Positions 1 to 6,000 are shown, numbered from the whole stretch's first letter. The stretch is 56,603 nucleotides of DNA, filler included, from Nitrospiraceae bacterium (GCA_002726235.1; 3 parts of 3 records of this genome joined end to end with filler, not necessarily neighbours in it); one strand, 5' to 3'. Made by a program: the numbers.

Positions 1-3000
1 GATTTAGGTCGGAATCAACTTCGGCCCTATTTACAGGCTCTTCAAAGCATTGTTCAAGAAATGTGGGGTTGGTCTACCTAGCAGATAAAGATTCCCAACT
101 AAGGCACCTGATTGTCGCAAATAATTCCTTGAAATTTCGGAAACGGAAGTTCTGCTTCGAGGCGCTCATCAACGTTATGCAAATCAGCAACTTTTGGACA
201 AAGCATCAGATGCAATCCGCTCTAGGATCTGCCTGCTAATAAACAATGAAGTAACACCAAAAAAATTCCTAGCAACCGACGTGGCTCAGTTGAGGGCTTT
301 TGGAGTACCCTTAGCGCACACATAGAAAAGAATCTTCCCAATAAAAGTTCTGGCAACCGAGATGTCCTGACAGTCTACTCAATAGTTGGGTGCAGGAAGA
401 TAAAGGAGGAACAGATATGGGGGATCAGGGGGGAAAAGACAAAAACAAAAGGGAACAACAGAAAAAGGACAAGCATAGTTCAAAGGAAAAACGACAATTG
501 AAAAGAGAAAAGAAGAAATGATGGCCAGTGCTGTCCGGTGACCCGTTCAACACCGCAAAGTGATTGCTAATCGCGGATGGAGATCAACTTTCCATCAACA
601 TCCAGAATCAAGACCGAGGCAATCATCCAACAAAGCCTTCGAGCGTATGGGTAAACCCGCCGCTCAAGGCACACGTCATGCATCGAGTCGGAGTAGTTCT
701 TACTTCTTCCCCCTTGATGGAGTCCAGTCCCAGAGTGAGTGTTCTGGCCAGTCACTCTTCGATCCACCAGTCCACTTCTCCCCATTTTGACTGCATCACT
801 GCAACACCCCCCTTGAGCCTTCTCAACCGTTGCACTGTTGTGTGCCAATTGCGCTAAGTTAAAAACACCAGCGGAGGAGAGACCTAGTGAAGCGAGAGGA
901 CCAGTGTCCAAACCTCAACCATCGCATCCCAATGCGCCGTTACAATCTGGTATCATGTGCGGCGAGGTGGTGAATCACAGCATTCCTGTGCCGCCGAACG
1001 GGTGTCGGGAGAAACAACATGTGAGGCGTGGCCATGCACAGGATGCCTACTGTCGGTATTGTGGGCAACAGCTTAGAGGGACATGACACTATGAATCGTA
1101 TCAAGATCGCTATTGTCGGGGTTGGGAACTGTGCCAGTTCATTGATACAGGGCATCCACTACTACCGGGAAAAGATTCCCCAAGAGGCGATCGGCCTGAT
1201 GCATTGGGAAATCGGTGGATACTCGCCTGGTGATATCGAGGTGGTCGCGGCTGTCGATATCGATGTGCGAAAAGTCGGCGTCGATGTGCATGAGGCCATT
1301 TTTTCCCTACCCAACTGTACGACAGTCTTCTGCCCCGACCTTCCCAAAGCCGGAGTCACCGTGCAGATGGGCGGGATTATGGATGGATTTTCCGACCACA
1401 TGACAGCGTACGATCCAAAGCGCACGTTTGTTCAAGCCAATAAGCCAGAACCGACCGAAGGAGACATCGTCACGTTGCTCCGCGAATCTGGTGTGGAGAT
1501 TCTCATGAATTATCTTCCGGTCGGCTCCGAGAAGGCGACGGAGTTTTATGCCGGCTGCGCATTGAAGGCTGGCGCGGCCTTCATCAACAACATTCCAGTG
1601 TTTATTGCCAGCGATGCTCAAGGGAGCTGGGCCAGGCGATTTCAAGAGGCCGGCCTCCCCATTATCGGCGATGACATCAAAGCGCAGGTAGGGGCAACCA
1701 TCACCCATCGGGTCCTAACTGATTTGTTCGCCAAGCGTGGGGTGAAGCTGGAGCGGACGTACCAACTCAATACCGGCGGCAATACTGACTTTCTCAACAT
1801 GCTCAACCGCGATCGGCTGGCGTCAAAGAAACAATCCAAGACTCAGGCCGTACAGTCCGTGGCCGCTCACCCTATAGAGGATGACAACATCCATATTGGC
1901 CCGAGTGATTATGTGCCGTGGCAAAATGACAATAAGGTCTGTTTTCTCCGTATGGAAGGACGGCTATTCGGTGATGTGCCCATGAACCTCGAATTGCGCC
2001 TTTCAGTAGAGGATTCACCTAACTCGGCAGGGGTCGCGATCGATTCCATCCGCTGCGCCAAACTCGCGTTGGACCGAGGACAGAGTGGCATACTCGAAGG
2101 ACCGTCGGCTTACTTTTGCAAACATCCCCAACGACAGTTTACCGATGATATCGCCTTCCAGATGACGGAACATTTCATCAACGGCGACTGAGATTATCGG
2201 GATGAAATGCCTCATCATCGCGGCGGGCAAAGGAAGCCGGCTGCAGCAGAGGGGTCCCAGTAAGCCCCTCATTCCCCTTCTAGGCATCCCCTTGATTGAA
2301 CGCGTCATCCGCACCGCGTTGGACGCTGGTGTCGACGAAATATTCGTCGTGACCGGCTACCAGGGTGAACAGATCCGTGATTTCTTGGAAGGATTGGCGG
2401 CACGACTTGCGATTCGGATCACTCCTTTGGTGAATGACGAGTGGGAGAAAGACAATGGACTCTCCGTGCTCACGGCGCGAGACTACCTTCACGATCCCTT
2501 TCTGCTTCTCATGGCGGATCACCTCTTCGACCCACGCTTAGGCCATGCACTAACAACGCATGCCCTGACCGATGGAGAGATCGCGCTCGGCATCGATCTC
2601 GACACCCGCAATCCTCTGGTTGATATGGAAGATGTGACCCGTATCAAAGTGGAGGACGGGAAGATTCGTACGATCGGCAAGGGATTAGTCGACTTCAATG
2701 GATTCGATACTGGAGTGTTCCTGTGTTCCCCAGCGATATTTAAGGCTCTGGCGCAAAGCAAAGACACCGTGGGTGATGCCACCCTGTCAGGAGCGGTACG
2801 GATTCTTGCCGCAAAGGGATGTGTGAGCGCTGTCCCTACGCGTGGTTTCTGGGTTGACGTCGACGATCCGAAGGCATTCAACAAGGCCGAAGCGGCCCTC
2901 TTAGATCATCTCCGCGACAAGTCAAACGATGGGCCTGTGTCCCGTTACCTGAACCGTCCCATATCCATACGAGTGTCCCGTTATTTGGCACAATATGATG

Positions 3001-6000
3001 TGACGCCCAATCAAATTTCCCTGTTCTCGTTTCTGTGTTCCATGATTGCCGCCGGACTGTTTGCTCTGGGCGGCTATCTCGCCTTGCTTCTGGGAGGCGT
3101 TCTTGCCCAATTCGCATCTGTCATCGATGGGTGCGACGGGGAAGTGGCTAGGCTCAAGTACCAAAGCAGCGACTTCGGCGGTTGGTTCGATGCGGTGCTG
3201 GACCGTTATGCCGATGCGTTTCTCCTCTTTGGCTTGACGTGGCATGTGCTCCTCACGGAGCCGAATGGTTGGATCCTCTTCATCGGTGTCATGGCCATTA
3301 TCGGATCCTTCATGCTGAGTTATACGGCGGATAAGTACGATAACCTCATGCGTGAACGATTCGAGTTGAGGGGTATGGCCATGATACGGATGGGACGTGA
3401 TGTGCGGGTATTGCTCATCTTCATTGGTGCAGTGATGAATCTCGTACTCCCTGTGCTGGTGGCGATCGTGGTGGTGATGAATATCGAGACAATACGCCGG
3501 ATGAAGGTCGCGTCGGATGCGTAGTGTTGAGTCTGCCAAACAGAGCATCAGGCGGATTGTCGGCGGCTCGCGCGTGCCCGAGGACCCACGCCATGCTGAC
3601 AACACCCTAGAGTGGCTGTTGCGCTTTGCACCGGATGCCGACGATGCTCTGCAATTGGCAGCGCTGGCCCACGACATCGACCGAGCCATCGAAGAAAGCA
3701 AGACCCCGCGTGCGGACTTTGAGGATTATGATGCCTTCAAGGCTGCCCATGCCCGTCATGGCGCGGAAATACTGCGCCCGATTCTCGTCGCATGTGGCGT
3801 GGAAGGCCATATCGTGAACGAGGCGTGCCGTTTGGTAAAGGTCCACGAGGTGGGAGGAGATCCCAGCTCCGATCTACTCAAGGATGCCGACAGTGTCTCC
3901 TATTTCGACGTCAATCTCCCGCTCTATTACGAGCGTGAGGGGTGGGATGAGGCCAAACGGAGATCACTCTGGGGATATCGGCGTCTGTCGCCACCGGCGA
4001 AAGAGATTGTCAAACACATTGTCTACCAGGAGCAAGCGCTGGTGCGTTTGATGCAGGAGGTCATTCATGAAGCTCGCGAATGTCTTCAACCGACTCTGCA
4101 ATGAAGCCGACCACCATTGCCTCTCCTAGTGTACCATGAGTGGGTGGACGAATATCGAACTGACCTTTCCCCCTTGATTAAGTTCAGCGAGCGCGACGAT
4201 GCTGTGAAAGACTATCACCGCCAAAACAGAGCTCTCCCTGAAGAGACCCGATACGACATCCTGATTCTAAACGCGTCATCTAGAATGGCGTTACCCGTCA
4301 CGCATCCGCGCTTCTTCCCTCAGGGCCTACTCTCGCCATAAGATCAAGAGCTATATAGCTAGCCTCCCTTTCAAATTATCTTCACCCCCTGCTTACGATC
4401 TCAATCCAAAAATGTGTGATGCGCTAAAATTGTCGAGTATTGTTGTGTTCGACTCAATGTTGATTTAGGTCGGAATCAACTTCGGCCCTATTTACAGGCT
4501 CTTCAAAGCATTGTTCAAGAAATGTGGGGTTGGCACGAAATCTGCTTTCCCCCATTGGAGGGAATCGTATACGAGGATAGCTCACATGCTGAATTTCTGG
4601 AAAACAGGGTAGATGCGAAGCCTTTTGAAAGGAAACGTCGATCGTCAAGCTCGAAAGGTGAAGGTTCGCCAGAATCCTGTCGACCGTTGGGCATATACCA
4701 CGTGTGGGTATTGCTCGACCGGATGCGGCATTGAAGTGGGAGTGAAAGATGCTCGTGCGGTGTCCGTGCGAGGAACCAATGCCCATCCGGTCAATCAAGG
4801 CAAACTATGCTTGAAAGGCATTTGGGAGTTCGAGGCGATTAACGCACCGAATCGCGGGACACATCCGTTGATGCGCGAGGAACCGACTCAGCCATATCGT
4901 CGGGTCTCCTGGGATGCGGCACTCACGCAAACGGCGACAGAATTTCGTCGCATTATGGACACGTACGGTCCGGACGCGCTTGCGGTCGTCAGCACCGGCC
5001 AGATCTATACCGAGGAATTCTACGCCCTCGGTAAACTTGTGCGGGGGGGACTTGGGACAAACAACTACGACGGAAACACCACCTTATGCATGGCCAGTGC
5101 GGTATCAGGCTACAAGCGATCCTTTGGATCCGATGGCCCCCCAGGATGCTACGACGATTTTGATGAGACGGAGTGCCTGCTCGCATTCGGATCGAATCTT
5201 GTGGAATGTCATCCGGTAATTTACTACCGGCTCAAGATGGCGCTCGAGCGCCGTCGATTTCCTGTTATCGTCATCGATCCACGCGTCACTGTGTTCGCAC
5301 AAAACGCGGATATTCACCTTGCCATCAATCCTGGGACGGACTTGGTATTGCTCAATGCCCTCGCTCACGTGATTTTGGAAGAACGCCTCGCTGATCAGAA
5401 ATACATTGAAACCCATACCAGCGATTTCGATGCATTTGTGGAAACGGNGACGAAATACTCCCCTGAATACGCGGAGCCGATCACTGGAATTCCAGCATCC
5501 ACAACTCGAACAGTTGCCAGGATCTATGGCAACGCAAATGCTGCGATGTCCATTTGGACAATGGGAATCAATCAGTCTGTGCATGGATCAGATGGCGTGG
5601 TCGCTATTAACAATCTCTCGTTGCTTACAGGAAACATCGGAAAACCAGGCGCAACGTCGCTCTCTATCACTGGCCAGTGTAATGCCATGGGCACCCGTGA
5701 ATTTTCGTCATGCTCAGGACTGCCGGGCTATCGCCTGCTCGAAAATCAGGAACACCGGGCGCAAATCGCGCAATATTGGGGTGTGGATGAATCATTCTTT
5801 CCCCTTAAACGAGGCAAAACGATGACCGATATCTTTCCCGCCATTGAGGCAGGAACCATCAAGGGTCTTTGGCTCATCGCGACCAATCCTGCGACATCAA
5901 TGCCGCAAACCCAGCGGATTGCAAAGAGTTTGAGAAACCTTGAGTTTCTTGTCGTCCAAGACGTGTTCGAAAATGTGGATTCAGCAGAGTTTGCCCACGT

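Follow-up and report, generated by a model that had tools for sequence, protein, structure and literature searches.

A three-gene operon for the probable synthesis of di-myo-inositol phosphate in a Nitrospiraceae bacterium

In the window, i.e., the whole stretch of 56,603 nucleotides analysed from a Nitrospiraceae bacterium (GCA_002726235.1), three translationally coupled genes at 1028-4104 form a compact operon. Its probable role is the synthesis of a soluble phosphodiester of inositol, di-myo-inositol phosphate (DIP) being the most likely product. A first-pass annotation had recognised an inositol-3-phosphate synthase gene and a gene for a 440-aa fusion protein, and both lie where it placed them (1028-2191 and 2202-3524); since its feature stopped at 3524, however, the third gene of the operon was missed. 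Its proposal that the organism can make DIP is still the best-supported reading and is strengthened by the third gene, by gene fusions and by the distance of the fusion protein from BEPIS, the product being deduced from the genes. The three genes are as follows.

1028-2191, plus strand: myo-inositol-3-phosphate synthase (MIPS), from the open reading frame and profile matches
2202-3524, plus strand: bifunctional cytidylyltransferase and CDP-alcohol transferase fusion, 440 aa, from the open reading frame, profiles and motifs
3517-4104, plus strand: DUF4202 HD-domain protein, 195 aa, from the open reading frame, profiles, motifs, neighbourhood counts and fusions

What was observed directly is the order of the genes, their domains and motifs, the homology of the fusion to a characterised inositol-1-phosphate cytidylyltransferase/DIPP synthase (IPCT/DIPPS) and the conservation of the cassette. 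MIPS and the fusion gene are separated by 10 nt, and the start of the DUF4202 gene overlaps the stop codon of the fusion gene by 8 nt. From these genes we infer what the enzymes act on and make, and what the third protein does. MIPS would convert glucose-6-phosphate to L-myo-inositol-1-phosphate, which the N-terminal domain of the fusion would activate with CTP to CDP-inositol; the membrane domain would then move inositol phosphate to a second inositol-1-phosphate to give DIPP, a phosphorylated intermediate, and the HD/DUF4202 protein would take off the remaining phosphate to leave DIP. In profile searches, ORF 1028-2191 matched PF01658 (126 bits) and TIGR03450 (440 bits, below the cut-off of 638). 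Its longest form opens at GTG 1028, with alternative starts at ATG 1034 and ATG 1091; the last is likelier to be used, since the family model aligns from residue 25. The protein is 71-86% identical to the MIPS adjoining the fusion in most related loci, and 69% identical to the MIPS of a genus relative (G016).

Pfam places NTP_transferase at residues 3-234 of the fusion and CDP-OH_P_transf at 268-396, exactly the limits given in the first-pass annotation. The N-terminal part (~1-235; PF12804 and PF00483 both match 3-234) resembles inositol-1-phosphate cytidylyltransferases, and its best solved match is the Archaeoglobus fulgidus IPCT (2xme, E 5e-21), whereas the C-terminal part (~240-440) is a CDP-alcohol phosphotransferase membrane domain of the DIPP-synthase/AF2299 type. 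A7, G9, G11, R13, K21 and D106, covering the G-x-G-x-R-L loop and the catalytic Lys and Asp, are invariant in 25 relatives. The translation also contains the C-terminal signature D309-G310-x2-D312-G313-x2-A316-R317-x8-G326-x3-D330-x3-D334, conserved in 95% or more of the 150 family members compared, with the exception of R317 (85-95%), as well as an R399-D400-x-R402 motif, of which R399-D-x-R402 is invariant. The protein thus has both domain signatures and the MIPS association of IPCT/DIPP synthases (NF041135; EC 2.7.7.74 / 2.7.8.34). NF041135 is its best NCBIfam model and aligns full length (residues 1-431), at 282 bits where the curated equivalog cut-off is 580; that model was built for Thermococcales, and its cut-off was passed by none of 14 control genomes, Thermotoga maritima included. 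Against the solved Archaeoglobus IPCT/DIPPS (AF0263, 4mnd; IPCT domain 2xme) the fusion is colinear over residues 1-415 (E 1.9e-53), with the two domains in the same order; the signatures for nucleotide binding and for CDP-alcohol transfer agree, as do the juxtamembrane motifs DG..SR.xNR.xS and RDxR. It differs in being only about one third identical and in that AF0263 belongs to a hyperthermophilic archaeon; AF0263 is not known to have a DUF4202 partner. Counting against the DIP reading, every characterised IPCT/DIPPS is only ~30-35% identical to the fusion, and the NF041135 score falls short of the equivalog cut-off. Synthesis of CDP-inositol and DIPP from CTP and inositol-1-phosphate is the most likely activity predicted for it.

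The first-pass annotation had described the genes as present in this species only and had compared the fusion with its Rubrobacter counterpart (34%). Within the order the restriction holds, since only this genome among 201 has a full-length match above 50% identity, and two genus relatives match residues 1-232 alone (48-49%), as had been noted. Outside the order it does not: among 8000 candidates scored there were 3289 homologues at E<=1e-10, all 120 listed being at least 75% identical, and named MAGs from a wide range of phyla contributed 79 loci at 52-78% identity. Homologues 70-78% identical occur in MAGs of at least six phyla, and the closest relatives are therefore not in Rubrobacter; the apparent restriction to one species is a sampling effect. 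At 50% identity (E<=1e-30) the family falls into 573 clusters, nearly all of them uncultured. MIPS lies directly upstream of the fusion in 65 of the 79 loci (in the other 14 the contig left no room in 4, the gene was elsewhere in 1 and absent in 9). DUF4202 lies directly downstream in 67 and at 940 bp in one more, with no room in 4 and absence in 7; with metagenome loci included, the count of loci with DUF4202 after the fusion rises to 138 of 159. Some lineages have a HAD phosphatase at the DUF4202 position. The three-gene operon is common, almost unchanged, to deep-sea and sediment bacteria of many phyla.

The third protein scores 63.1 bits against DUF4202 (PF13875; gathering threshold 35.1) and 27.9 bits against HD (PF01966; threshold 22), and it has the H..HD..D metal ligands and the all-helical HD fold of the family. 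H26, H52, D53, H78, H110 and D125 are invariant in 26 DUF4202 sequences, as are E111, R56, K75, R140 and R149. The top fold matches of the predicted model, which is all-helical (pLDDT 94.7), belong only to the HD superfamily and are mostly phosphohydrolases (TM 0.55-0.63). Among known structures, 2pq7, YpgQ (5dqw), SE1688 (2qgs) and Mesh1 (5vxa) have the same all-helical fold and H..HD..D metal site at 11-19% identity and Foldseek E values of 4e-3 and weaker; unlike the role proposed here, their substrates are nucleotides. A literature search found no published study of any DUF4202 member. On the basis of neighbourhood and fusions, we consider the protein a candidate DIPP phosphatase, the probable last step of the pathway. 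Synthase and DUF4202 form a single ORF in two loci (L024, 629 aa; L025, 638 aa), and among 16 long family representatives, 3 end in a DUF4202 domain and 8 have a HAD phosphatase there instead. Of 42 long DUF4202 proteins, 7 are fused to synthase domains. A phosphatase partner on the synthase would imply a phosphorylated product, as in DIPP. Also in favour of the main reading, DUF4202 is fused in 4 loci to a PfkB kinase whose sole PDB match is the T. kodakarensis myo-inositol 3-kinase (3w4s/4xf7, E 1.2e-6). Synthase clustered with a phosphohydrolase gene is also known elsewhere: the DIP cluster of Thermotoga maritima, reportedly described by Rodionov et al. in 2007, is said to comprise MIPS, IPCT/DIPPS and an IMPase-family DIPP phosphatase. 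A hadal Thaumarchaeota island described in PMC7265257 contains IPCT/DIPPS and an extra IMPase gene. The window differs from both in that its phosphohydrolase is of the HD superfamily (DUF4202) rather than an IMPase, and in that its cassette is bacterial and spread across phyla.

A plausible but less likely alternative would have DUF4202 act in solute turnover or control, as a phosphodiesterase or pyrophosphohydrolase that breaks down DIP or CDP-inositol, while housekeeping IMPase-family enzymes dephosphorylate DIPP. Diesterases and oxygenases also share the HD fold; many HD enzymes are diesterases or pyrophosphohydrolases, and YpgQ, Mesh1 and YqeK are among the top fold matches. Two IMPase-family genes lie elsewhere in the genome and could dephosphorylate DIPP, as an enzyme of this family reportedly does in Thermotoga. 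Moreover, 28 of the 42 long DUF4202 proteins are fused to a PfkB kinase related to myo-inositol 3-kinase, in keeping with a reuse of the inositol set free. Fusions of HAD with DUF4202 (3 of the 42) would be odd if the two domains were equivalent phosphatases. Against this, DUF4202 takes the same C-terminal fusion position on the synthase as HAD phosphatases, it is translationally coupled to the synthase in the window, and a degrading enzyme fused to a synthase would amount to a futile cycle.

The identity of the acceptor bears on a second alternative, that the fusion makes another soluble inositol phosphodiester (e.g., glycero-phospho-inositol or some other compound derived from CDP-inositol), the acceptor not being inositol-1-phosphate and the HD protein still removing a phosphate. 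The best-scoring solved relative of the membrane domain is A. fulgidus AF2299 (4o6m; 163 bits over 198 aa, residues 237-434), which has the same six-helix architecture, and this score exceeds the excess that the whole protein gains over its IPCT domain against AF0263. AF2299 binds CDP-glycerol (according to PMC4634129), and another donor or acceptor is therefore possible; the diversity of the family, with its hundreds of mostly uncultured clusters, also speaks for this reading. We nevertheless regard this as unlikely, given that the N-terminal domain resembles the AF0263 IPCT (78 bits) and has no significant match to the dissimilar N-terminal domain of AF2299, that the cassette has no substrate-supplying gene besides MIPS, and that no glycerol-phosphate enzyme is conserved beside it.

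A lipid pathway, with CDP-inositol furnishing the inositol phosphate head group of a membrane lipid, is improbable. Such a pathway exists in bacteria, namely the MIPS-IPCT-BEPIS operon for ether-lipid phosphoinositol in Rhodothermus marinus (Jorge et al. 2015, as described in PMC4587543), where MIPS and IPCT likewise lead to CDP-inositol; exactly such a split, BEPIS-type operon occurs in two genus relatives (G016, G004), and a membrane-embedded transferase would fit a lipid acceptor. In Rhodothermus, however, the transferase is a protein on its own of ~285-300 aa, interrupted by a soluble insert. The separate transferases of G016 and G004 are 44-45% identical to it over their full length, whereas the C-terminal domain of the window's fusion, compared with Rhodothermus sp. 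loci L136 and L137, reaches only ~26% identity over ~150 aa, and the fusion was accordingly rejected as a BEPIS-type CDP-inositol:lipid transferase. Direct transfer from CDP-inositol to a lipid would make a phosphatase superfluous, but most loci pair the synthase with a phosphohydrolase gene or domain. Finally, the two closest solved relatives, Af2299 and AfDIPP synthase, do not process lipids as they are described in PMC4634129, which also assigns recognition of inositol phosphate to the RxxR arginine.

The operon was acquired horizontally and is not ancestral to the lineage. In a tree built without the characterised enzymes of Thermotoga, Aquifex, Rubrobacter and Pyrococcus, the fusion fell in a 100%-supported clade of 8 members from at least six phyla. 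Cassette GC is 0.548 vs. 0.490 +/- 0.027 in genome windows, 0.37% of which are as high, and GC3 is 0.62-0.63 vs. 0.491 +/- 0.058. The surrounding features are as follows.

1-72, no strand: direct repeat, left copy, 72 bp, 100% identical to 4462-4533
696-837, no strand: short repeat element (repeat family D2) common with a same-genus genome
4357/4358, no strand: right boundary of the variable segment, where environmental contigs diverge leftwards
4462-4533, no strand: direct repeat, right copy, 72 bp, genus-native intergenic sequence upstream of the molybdopterin oxidoreductase gene
4613-6757, plus strand: molybdopterin oxidoreductase of the assimilatory nitrate reductase/formate dehydrogenase type, context only

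The repeat copies are spaced by 4461 and, since the contig opens at position 1, the left copy may reach further left. The 72/73 junction is bridged, as 151-base pieces from RNA-library runs X19 and X20 cover 40-189. The element at 696-837 occurs at four places in a genus relative (G008; 80-92% identity over 37-131 nt), and its 21-nt part 707-727 recurs at 4167-4187 (86%), just downstream of the DUF4202 gene. Environmental contigs matching from 4358 rightwards run leftwards into unrelated sequence and are missing the cassette (X3 record 21, 6233 bases at depth 12.9 vs. 7.5 for the cassette contig; X20 record 10), and none of the environmental contigs listed bridges 4357/4358. Homology to G008 begins at 4396, and the molybdopterin oxidoreductase is the first clearly native gene rightwards, with orthologues 89-91% identical in G008 and G016. 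The earlier view of the contig as native therefore stands from about 4396 rightwards, but not for the cassette, which lies beyond the polymorphic junction. That 1-4357 is altogether foreign to the organism, joined by a metagenome assembly error or wrongly binned, is very doubtful: the cassette lies at a contig end, is an outlier in GC and GC3, has another left neighbour of 4358 in two runs, with 4351-4358 bridged by no listed contig, and its junction found no match in metagenome_contigs, but the first 72 bases reproduce exactly the intergenic sequence at 4462-4533, which is native to the genus, the left junction is bridged by pieces from an independent study (records 1 and 6), the repeat at 696-837 is genus-specific, depth in run X4 is alike (4.5-6.1 for the cassette vs. 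4.2 for the neighbouring gene), and near-identical cassette proteins occur on 26 kb and 51 kb contigs of other assemblies. The operon sits in a strain-variable segment with a flanking direct repeat and is part of a cassette that moves between marine bacteria of many phyla, mostly those of sediment and deep water.

Proteome composition suggests that the host is a mesophile (~38 C): the IVYWREL fraction of 0.3986 corresponds to 38.5 C (Zeldovich relation, 1350 proxy ORFs), E+R+K is 16.2% and charged-minus-polar is 2.4. Neither a thermophilic composition nor a reverse gyrase was found; in a profile search of the genome (TIGR01054), the best match reached 263 bits vs. a cut-off of 471.7 and covered the topoisomerase part only. 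A tRNA G+C of 0.627, somewhat high on an uncalibrated scale, counts against mesophily. Near-identical DNA does occur in runs labelled as hydrothermal vent metagenomes, as the first-pass annotation reported (3 of the 15 runs with at least 0.21 of words), and is commoner in those labelled as marine (8), with 2 labelled as seawater and 1 as plankton. Together with the proteome and the missing reverse gyrase, these mostly marine and seawater occurrences speak against its suggestion of life at warm vent fluids. Its other suggestion, a break in the link between this solute and thermophily, fits better, although as a genomic inference it had already been published: IPCT/DIPPS genes are reported in non-thermophilic deep-sea Thaumarchaeota (PMC7265257, PMC8397731) and Atribacteria (bioRxiv 10.1101/536078), and PMC7265257 describes expression of the gene at about 2 C in non-thermophilic hadal Thaumarchaeota. 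Since the present host also looks mesophilic, the solute would protect it against osmotic stress, pressure or other stresses and not against heat.

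Three plus-strand ORFs in the window followed one another nearly without gaps:

1028-2191, plus strand: inositol-3-phosphate synthase (MIPS), 387 aa from a GTG start; alternative starts at ATG 1034 and ATG 1091
2202-3524, plus strand: NTP_transferase + CDP-OH_P_transf fusion, 440 aa; domains at residues 3-234 and 268-396
3517-4104, plus strand: DUF4202 HD-domain protein, 195 aa; start overlaps the fusion's stop codon by 8 nt

The first-pass annotation had reported MIPS and the fusion, and both were present, with the fusion's domains at exactly the positions given. However, its boundary at 3524 missed the third gene, the DUF4202 HD protein, which is a candidate for the DIPP phosphatase that it had not sought. 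The MIPS ORF matched PF01658 with 126 bits and TIGR03450 with 440 bits, the latter under the equivalog cut-off of 638. The best NCBIfam model for the fusion was NF041135, the Thermococcales IPCT/DIPPS equivalog (residues 1-431, 282 bits, cut-off 580), and among solved structures it best matched the IPCT/DIPPS of A. fulgidus (4mnd; residues 1-415, E 1.9e-53); the IPCT domain on its own (2xme) aligned with residues 1-232 (E 5e-21). The CDP-alcohol signature, D309-G-x2-D312-G-x2-A316-R317-x8-G326-x3-D330-x3-D334, was intact in the fusion and conserved among 150 family members. The locus is real and is a variation on a known pathway, and we hold with moderate confidence that its product is di-myo-inositol phosphate (DIP). 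Pieces from RNA libraries matched inside the fusion and HD genes at 100% identity, and the same libraries covered non-coding parts too; they give a hint of transcription, with DNA carry-over possible. A promoter and terminator scan of 1-4700 returned fewer sites than shuffled sequence did.

The product of 3517-4104 matched the DUF4202 Pfam model (63 bits vs. 35.1). Residues H26, H52, D53, H78, H110, E111, and D125 were invariant in an alignment of 26 orthologues, as were R56, K75, R140, and R149. The AlphaFold model was confident (pLDDT 94.7, pTM 0.90) and all-helical, and its top Foldseek matches in the PDB all belonged to the HD superfamily (2pq7, YpgQ, SE1688, and Mesh1; TM 0.55-0.63), with weak E-values, from 4e-3. 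Searched against PDB sequences, the profile had uninformative matches to a helical protein designed de novo (E 6e-4) and to 2pq7 (E 0.14) and no others, and a full-text search for the name DUF4202 found no literature on it. A complex prediction for the fusion and the DUF4202 protein scored 0.00 and was counted neither for nor against. We regard the chances that DUF4202 fills its candidate role as DIPP phosphatase as roughly even.

Fusions within the family bear on this role. Among 16 representatives of at least 526 aa, the C-terminus held a HAD phosphatase in eight, DUF4202 in three, DUF2461 in one, and nothing recognisable in four; HAD phosphatase and DUF4202 thus take the same C-terminal position in long synthases. 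Scanning for loci of the HAD-fused forms, to see what lies around them, gave none. At two Acidobacteriota loci, 72-73% identical, the fusion and DUF4202 formed a single ORF (629 and 638 aa). Passages of a report on hadal Thaumarchaeota place an IMPase gene beside IPCT/DIPPS (PMC7265257), whereas the partner in these bacteria is HAD or HD/DUF4202. That IMPase, HAD, and HD/DUF4202 share one slot is the pattern expected of non-orthologous enzymes for one step, and a phosphohydrolase slot beside IPCT/DIPPS argues that the transferase product bears a removable phosphate, as DIPP does. DUF4202 proteins above 342 aa (n = 42) were mostly PfkB-kinase fusions (28), with seven synthase-domain fusions, three HAD fusions, and four others. 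The sole PDB sequence match of the PfkB part was the T. kodakarensis PfkB kinase (3w4s/4xf6/4xf7, E 1.2e-6), described as an ATP-dependent myo-inositol 3-kinase (PMC5931981). Cassettes with PfkB-DUF4202 (loci L026, L212, L215, and L227; proteins P0328-P0359) may be an inositol salvage module.

Two other fates of CDP-inositol were considered. The membrane domain of the fusion gave its top score to AF2299 (4o6m; 163 bits over 237-434), a solved Archaeoglobus protein reported to bind CDP-glycerol (PMC4634129), and since the domain is nearer to this protein, a soluble inositol diester other than DIP is conceivable as the product, though unlikely. The second fate is a lipid, as described for the Rhodothermus marinus operon of MIPS, IPCT, and BEPIS, the CDP-inositol:lipid transferase (PMC4587543). 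Two of four genus relatives carried such a split operon (L088 = G016:C388 and L125 = G004:C15). In genome G016, it encoded a MIPS (69% identity to the window's), a cytidylyltransferase of 238 aa (48%), and a CDP-alcohol transferase of 299 aa, the last two as separate proteins; the transferase of G004 was of the same type and 58% identical to that of G016. The 299-aa protein was 44-45% identical, over its full length, to proteins of Rhodothermia genomes. Two of these were MAGs titled Rhodothermus sp., in which an IPCT-like gene lay ~1.4 kb off. The split operon also explains why, as already annotated, two genus relatives match only the first half of the fusion. The window's own domain, however, was just ~26% identical over ~150 aa to the Rhodothermia transferases, and 29% over 85 aa to that of G016. 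One structural report describes Af2299 and AfDIPP synthase as enzymes that do not process lipids, assigns soluble acceptors to six-helix CDP-alcohol transferases, and attributes recognition of inositol phosphate to an arginine of an RxxR motif (PMC4634129); R399-D400-x-R402 was invariant in the alignment of the window's fusion family. Because the domain differs from the Rhodothermus type, its solved relatives do not process lipids, and RxxR is invariant, we consider the lipid route quite improbable and favor DIP. No copy of the lipid-type operon was found in the source genome (90.65% completeness). The split operon in two relatives indicates two alternative CDP-inositol pathways in one genus, with a lipid-type operon in relatives and a solute-type cassette at a strain-variable site here.

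Two further groups of CDP-alcohol transferases were set aside as not belonging to the inositol system. Fusions of ~480 aa with nucleotidyltransferase and CDP-alcohol domains, present in many relatives of the order at 26-31% identity, had no MIPS in their 1.5-kb flanks and adjoined a class-V aminotransferase and an LPG_synthase_TM protein. The second CDP-alcohol transferase of the source genome (208 aa) sits in a 2-aminoethylphosphonate (AEP) cluster (L107, G000:C8:452000-461000) with a split phosphonopyruvate decarboxylase, an AEP transaminase, a nucleotidyltransferase, and a squalene-cyclase-like protein, a setting that points to a lipid or glycan with a phosphonate head group.

Cassette G+C was 0.548, vs. 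0.490 +/- 0.027 in 1640 same-size windows of the genome (0.37% as high), and GC3 of its genes was 0.62-0.63, vs. 0.491 +/- 0.058 in 1350 proxy genes (top 0.5-1.3%). The first 72 bases of the contig were identical to 4462-4533, and since 4396-4545 was homologous to DNA upstream of the orthologous oxidoreductase in the same-genus genome G008, this repeat is native. The 72/73 junction was bridged by pieces of a separate, independent study, and a short repeat at 696-837 recurred four times in G008. On the right, contigs of sequencing runs X3 and X20 that matched from 4358 on extended leftward into unrelated sequence, and the depth of this alternative form in X3 was 12.9 vs. 7.5 for the cassette contig. 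Its 30-base left neighbor in these runs was absent from the source genome, and no bridge of 4351-4358 was among the matches listed for run contigs. In metagenome_contigs, which may omit records near the source genome, an exact 44-base pattern over 4357/4358 had no match and a protein-based scan found no cassette copy more than 79% identical. Upstream of the oxidoreductase, G008, G016, and the source genome shared no conserved region, so synteny spoke neither for nor against nativity. We read the locus as a ~4.3-kb strain-variable insertion, with no integrase found inside it, between native direct repeats (N-insert-N), a structure consistent with Campbell-type integration and loss; that chimeric assembly joined the cassette to a native contig we judge very unlikely.

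The annotation had also given the solute genes as present in this species only, which held inside the sampled order (a full-length match above 50% identity in 1 of 201 genomes) but not outside it. A word-indexed protein search gave 3289 homologues of the fusion at E<=1e-10 among 8000 candidates scored, and the best 120 of these 3289 were all at least 75% identical over their full length; an exhaustive search of 50%-identity representatives gave 573 clusters at E<=1e-30. In species-representative genomes, relatives at 52-78% identity occupied 79 loci, with record titles naming Gammaproteobacteria, Deltaproteobacteria/Desulfobacterales, Planctomycetota, Acidobacteriota, Gemmatimonadota, Binatia, Actinomycetota, Dadabacteria, Zetaproteobacteria, SAR324, Rhodothermia, Nitrospirae/Nitrospira sp., and one archaeon. 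Some loci lay on large contigs (0.84 Mb or more), whole chromosomes of 2.8-4.4 Mb among them. MIPS was adjacent upstream at 65 of the 79 loci (elsewhere at 1, no room on the contig at 4, absent with room at 9) and DUF4202 adjacent downstream at 67 (940 bp off at 1, no room at 4, absent with room at 7). When 80 metagenome loci were added (n = 159), architectures were MIPS>fusion>DUF4202 (99), fusion>DUF4202 (35), MIPS>fusion (15), fusion alone (5), MIPS>fusion>PfkB-DUF4202 (4), and fusion>MIPS (1). Two copies per genome occurred in a Bryobacterales chromosome (OZ245359.1, L033/L034, ~5 kb apart) and a Nitrospira sp. MAG (L010/L060). Three loci 55-56% identical (L076, L077, and L081; labelled Thermodesulfovibrio, Nitrospirae, and Deferribacteres) were without DUF4202 and had a 453-aa class-II aldolase-like gene after the fusion, and at the archaeal locus (L087) a different HD-domain protein of 263 aa followed.

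The best 150 representatives of the fusion family at 50% identity were all environmental, and a phylum search centered on a MAG labelled Thermotogae ended at Acetothermia MAGs. A FastTree tree of 150 rows combined the window's fusion with 20 loci and 129 representatives (of the 150, 21 below 400 aa were omitted; long ones were trimmed to 470 residues); it had no characterised member, such as an enzyme of Thermotoga, Aquifex, Rubrobacter, or Pyrococcus. It placed the window's fusion in an eight-row clade with 100% support, labelled Nitrospira sp., Actinomycetota, Binatia, Deltaproteobacteria, Planctomycetales, Rhodothermia, and Dadabacteria. Because this clade mixes phyla, we infer that the fusion has spread by horizontal transfer. 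In six or more bacterial phyla, and on long-read chromosomes too, the cassette kept 70-78% identity; the trait therefore moves freely among marine bacteria.

DIP is treated as a signature solute of growth above about 55-60 °C, and life at warm vents had been offered as one of two readings for this organism. In a proxy proteome of 1350 ORFs, each 150 aa or longer, the IVYWREL fraction was 0.3986, for which the published linear relation T = 937F - 335 predicts 38.5 °C; in the same set, E+R+K was 16.2% and charged-minus-polar 2.4. No reverse gyrase was found in the source genome, and tRNA G+C (36 tRNAs) was 0.627, somewhat high as judged without a calibration set. Cassette DNA occurred in 20 runs of 14 studies, and the 15 runs that contained 0.21 or more of the cassette words were labelled marine (8), hydrothermal vent (3), seawater (2), marine plankton metagenome (1), and another organism (1). 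Nothing points to a thermophilic host, and neither the predicted temperature, the reverse gyrase search, nor the run labels, mostly marine or seawater, support the warm-vent proposal.

Passages of earlier reports describe hadal Thaumarchaeota with a DIPPS/IPCT fusion, an additional IMPase gene, and transcripts at ~2 °C (Zhong et al., 2020; PMC7265257), sediment AOA as the first non-thermophiles with DIP capacity (Kerou et al., 2021; PMC8397731), MIPS/IPCT-DIPPS in Atribacteria (Glass et al., 2021; bioRxiv 10.1101/536078), and DIP potential in trench Atribacteria (2026 preprint; PMC13648724). Gene-level occurrence outside thermophiles is therefore already in print. A search for "di-myo-inositol" with "Nitrospir*" found no title on Nitrospira inositol genes, and our search, with subscription papers and supplements outside it, found no report of a cross-phylum bacterial cassette, of the DUF4202 partner or its fusions, or of the lipid-type contrast within one genus. 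We tentatively propose, at somewhat less than an even chance, that DUF4202 is a dedicated HD-superfamily DIPP phosphatase and the cassette a self-sufficient, horizontally mobile DIP module that serves bacteria from many phyla in the cold, in deep water, and in sediment. If so, DIP would be a stress solute of general use in the sea, perhaps one against pressure, rather than a high-temperature marker; the cassette would bring its own phosphohydrolase, and DUF4202, a domain of unknown function, would gain a concrete candidate substrate. Were the product confirmed, cassette abundance against depth, temperature, and salinity could tell what DIP is for outside hot habitats.

Other parts of the window merit brief description. 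A nitrogen-assimilation block (4613-12385) follows the cassette on the right, its genes broken by several single N letters. It encodes a molybdopterin oxidoreductase resembling NasC/Fdh, a 655-aa protein in which a 4Fe-4S subunit is fused to a DmsC-like membrane anchor, and, on the minus strand, a NirB-NirD-like nitrite reductase of 1007 aa; a porin and an MFS transporter come next. The window links three contigs through stretches of N, so distances over 22890-22989 and 49185-49284 are meaningless. Contig C15 (22990-49184) is a replication-origin neighborhood with dnaA, dnaN, gyrB, and gyrA. GyrB was 60-64% identical to its counterparts in three MAGs labelled Nitrospirae or Thermodesulfovibrio, 56% (residues 9-558) to that of a MAG labelled Rhodothermia, and 50% to that of one labelled Nitrospira sp. 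Contig C24 (49285-56603, 7319 bases) had 37% G+C, vs. 49% for the genome, and an ORF of 1427 aa that contains a reverse transcriptase domain of the copia type (RVT_2); it looks like eukaryotic retrotransposon DNA misbinned into the genome; contig C26 was also odd (12.8 kb, 25.5% G+C).
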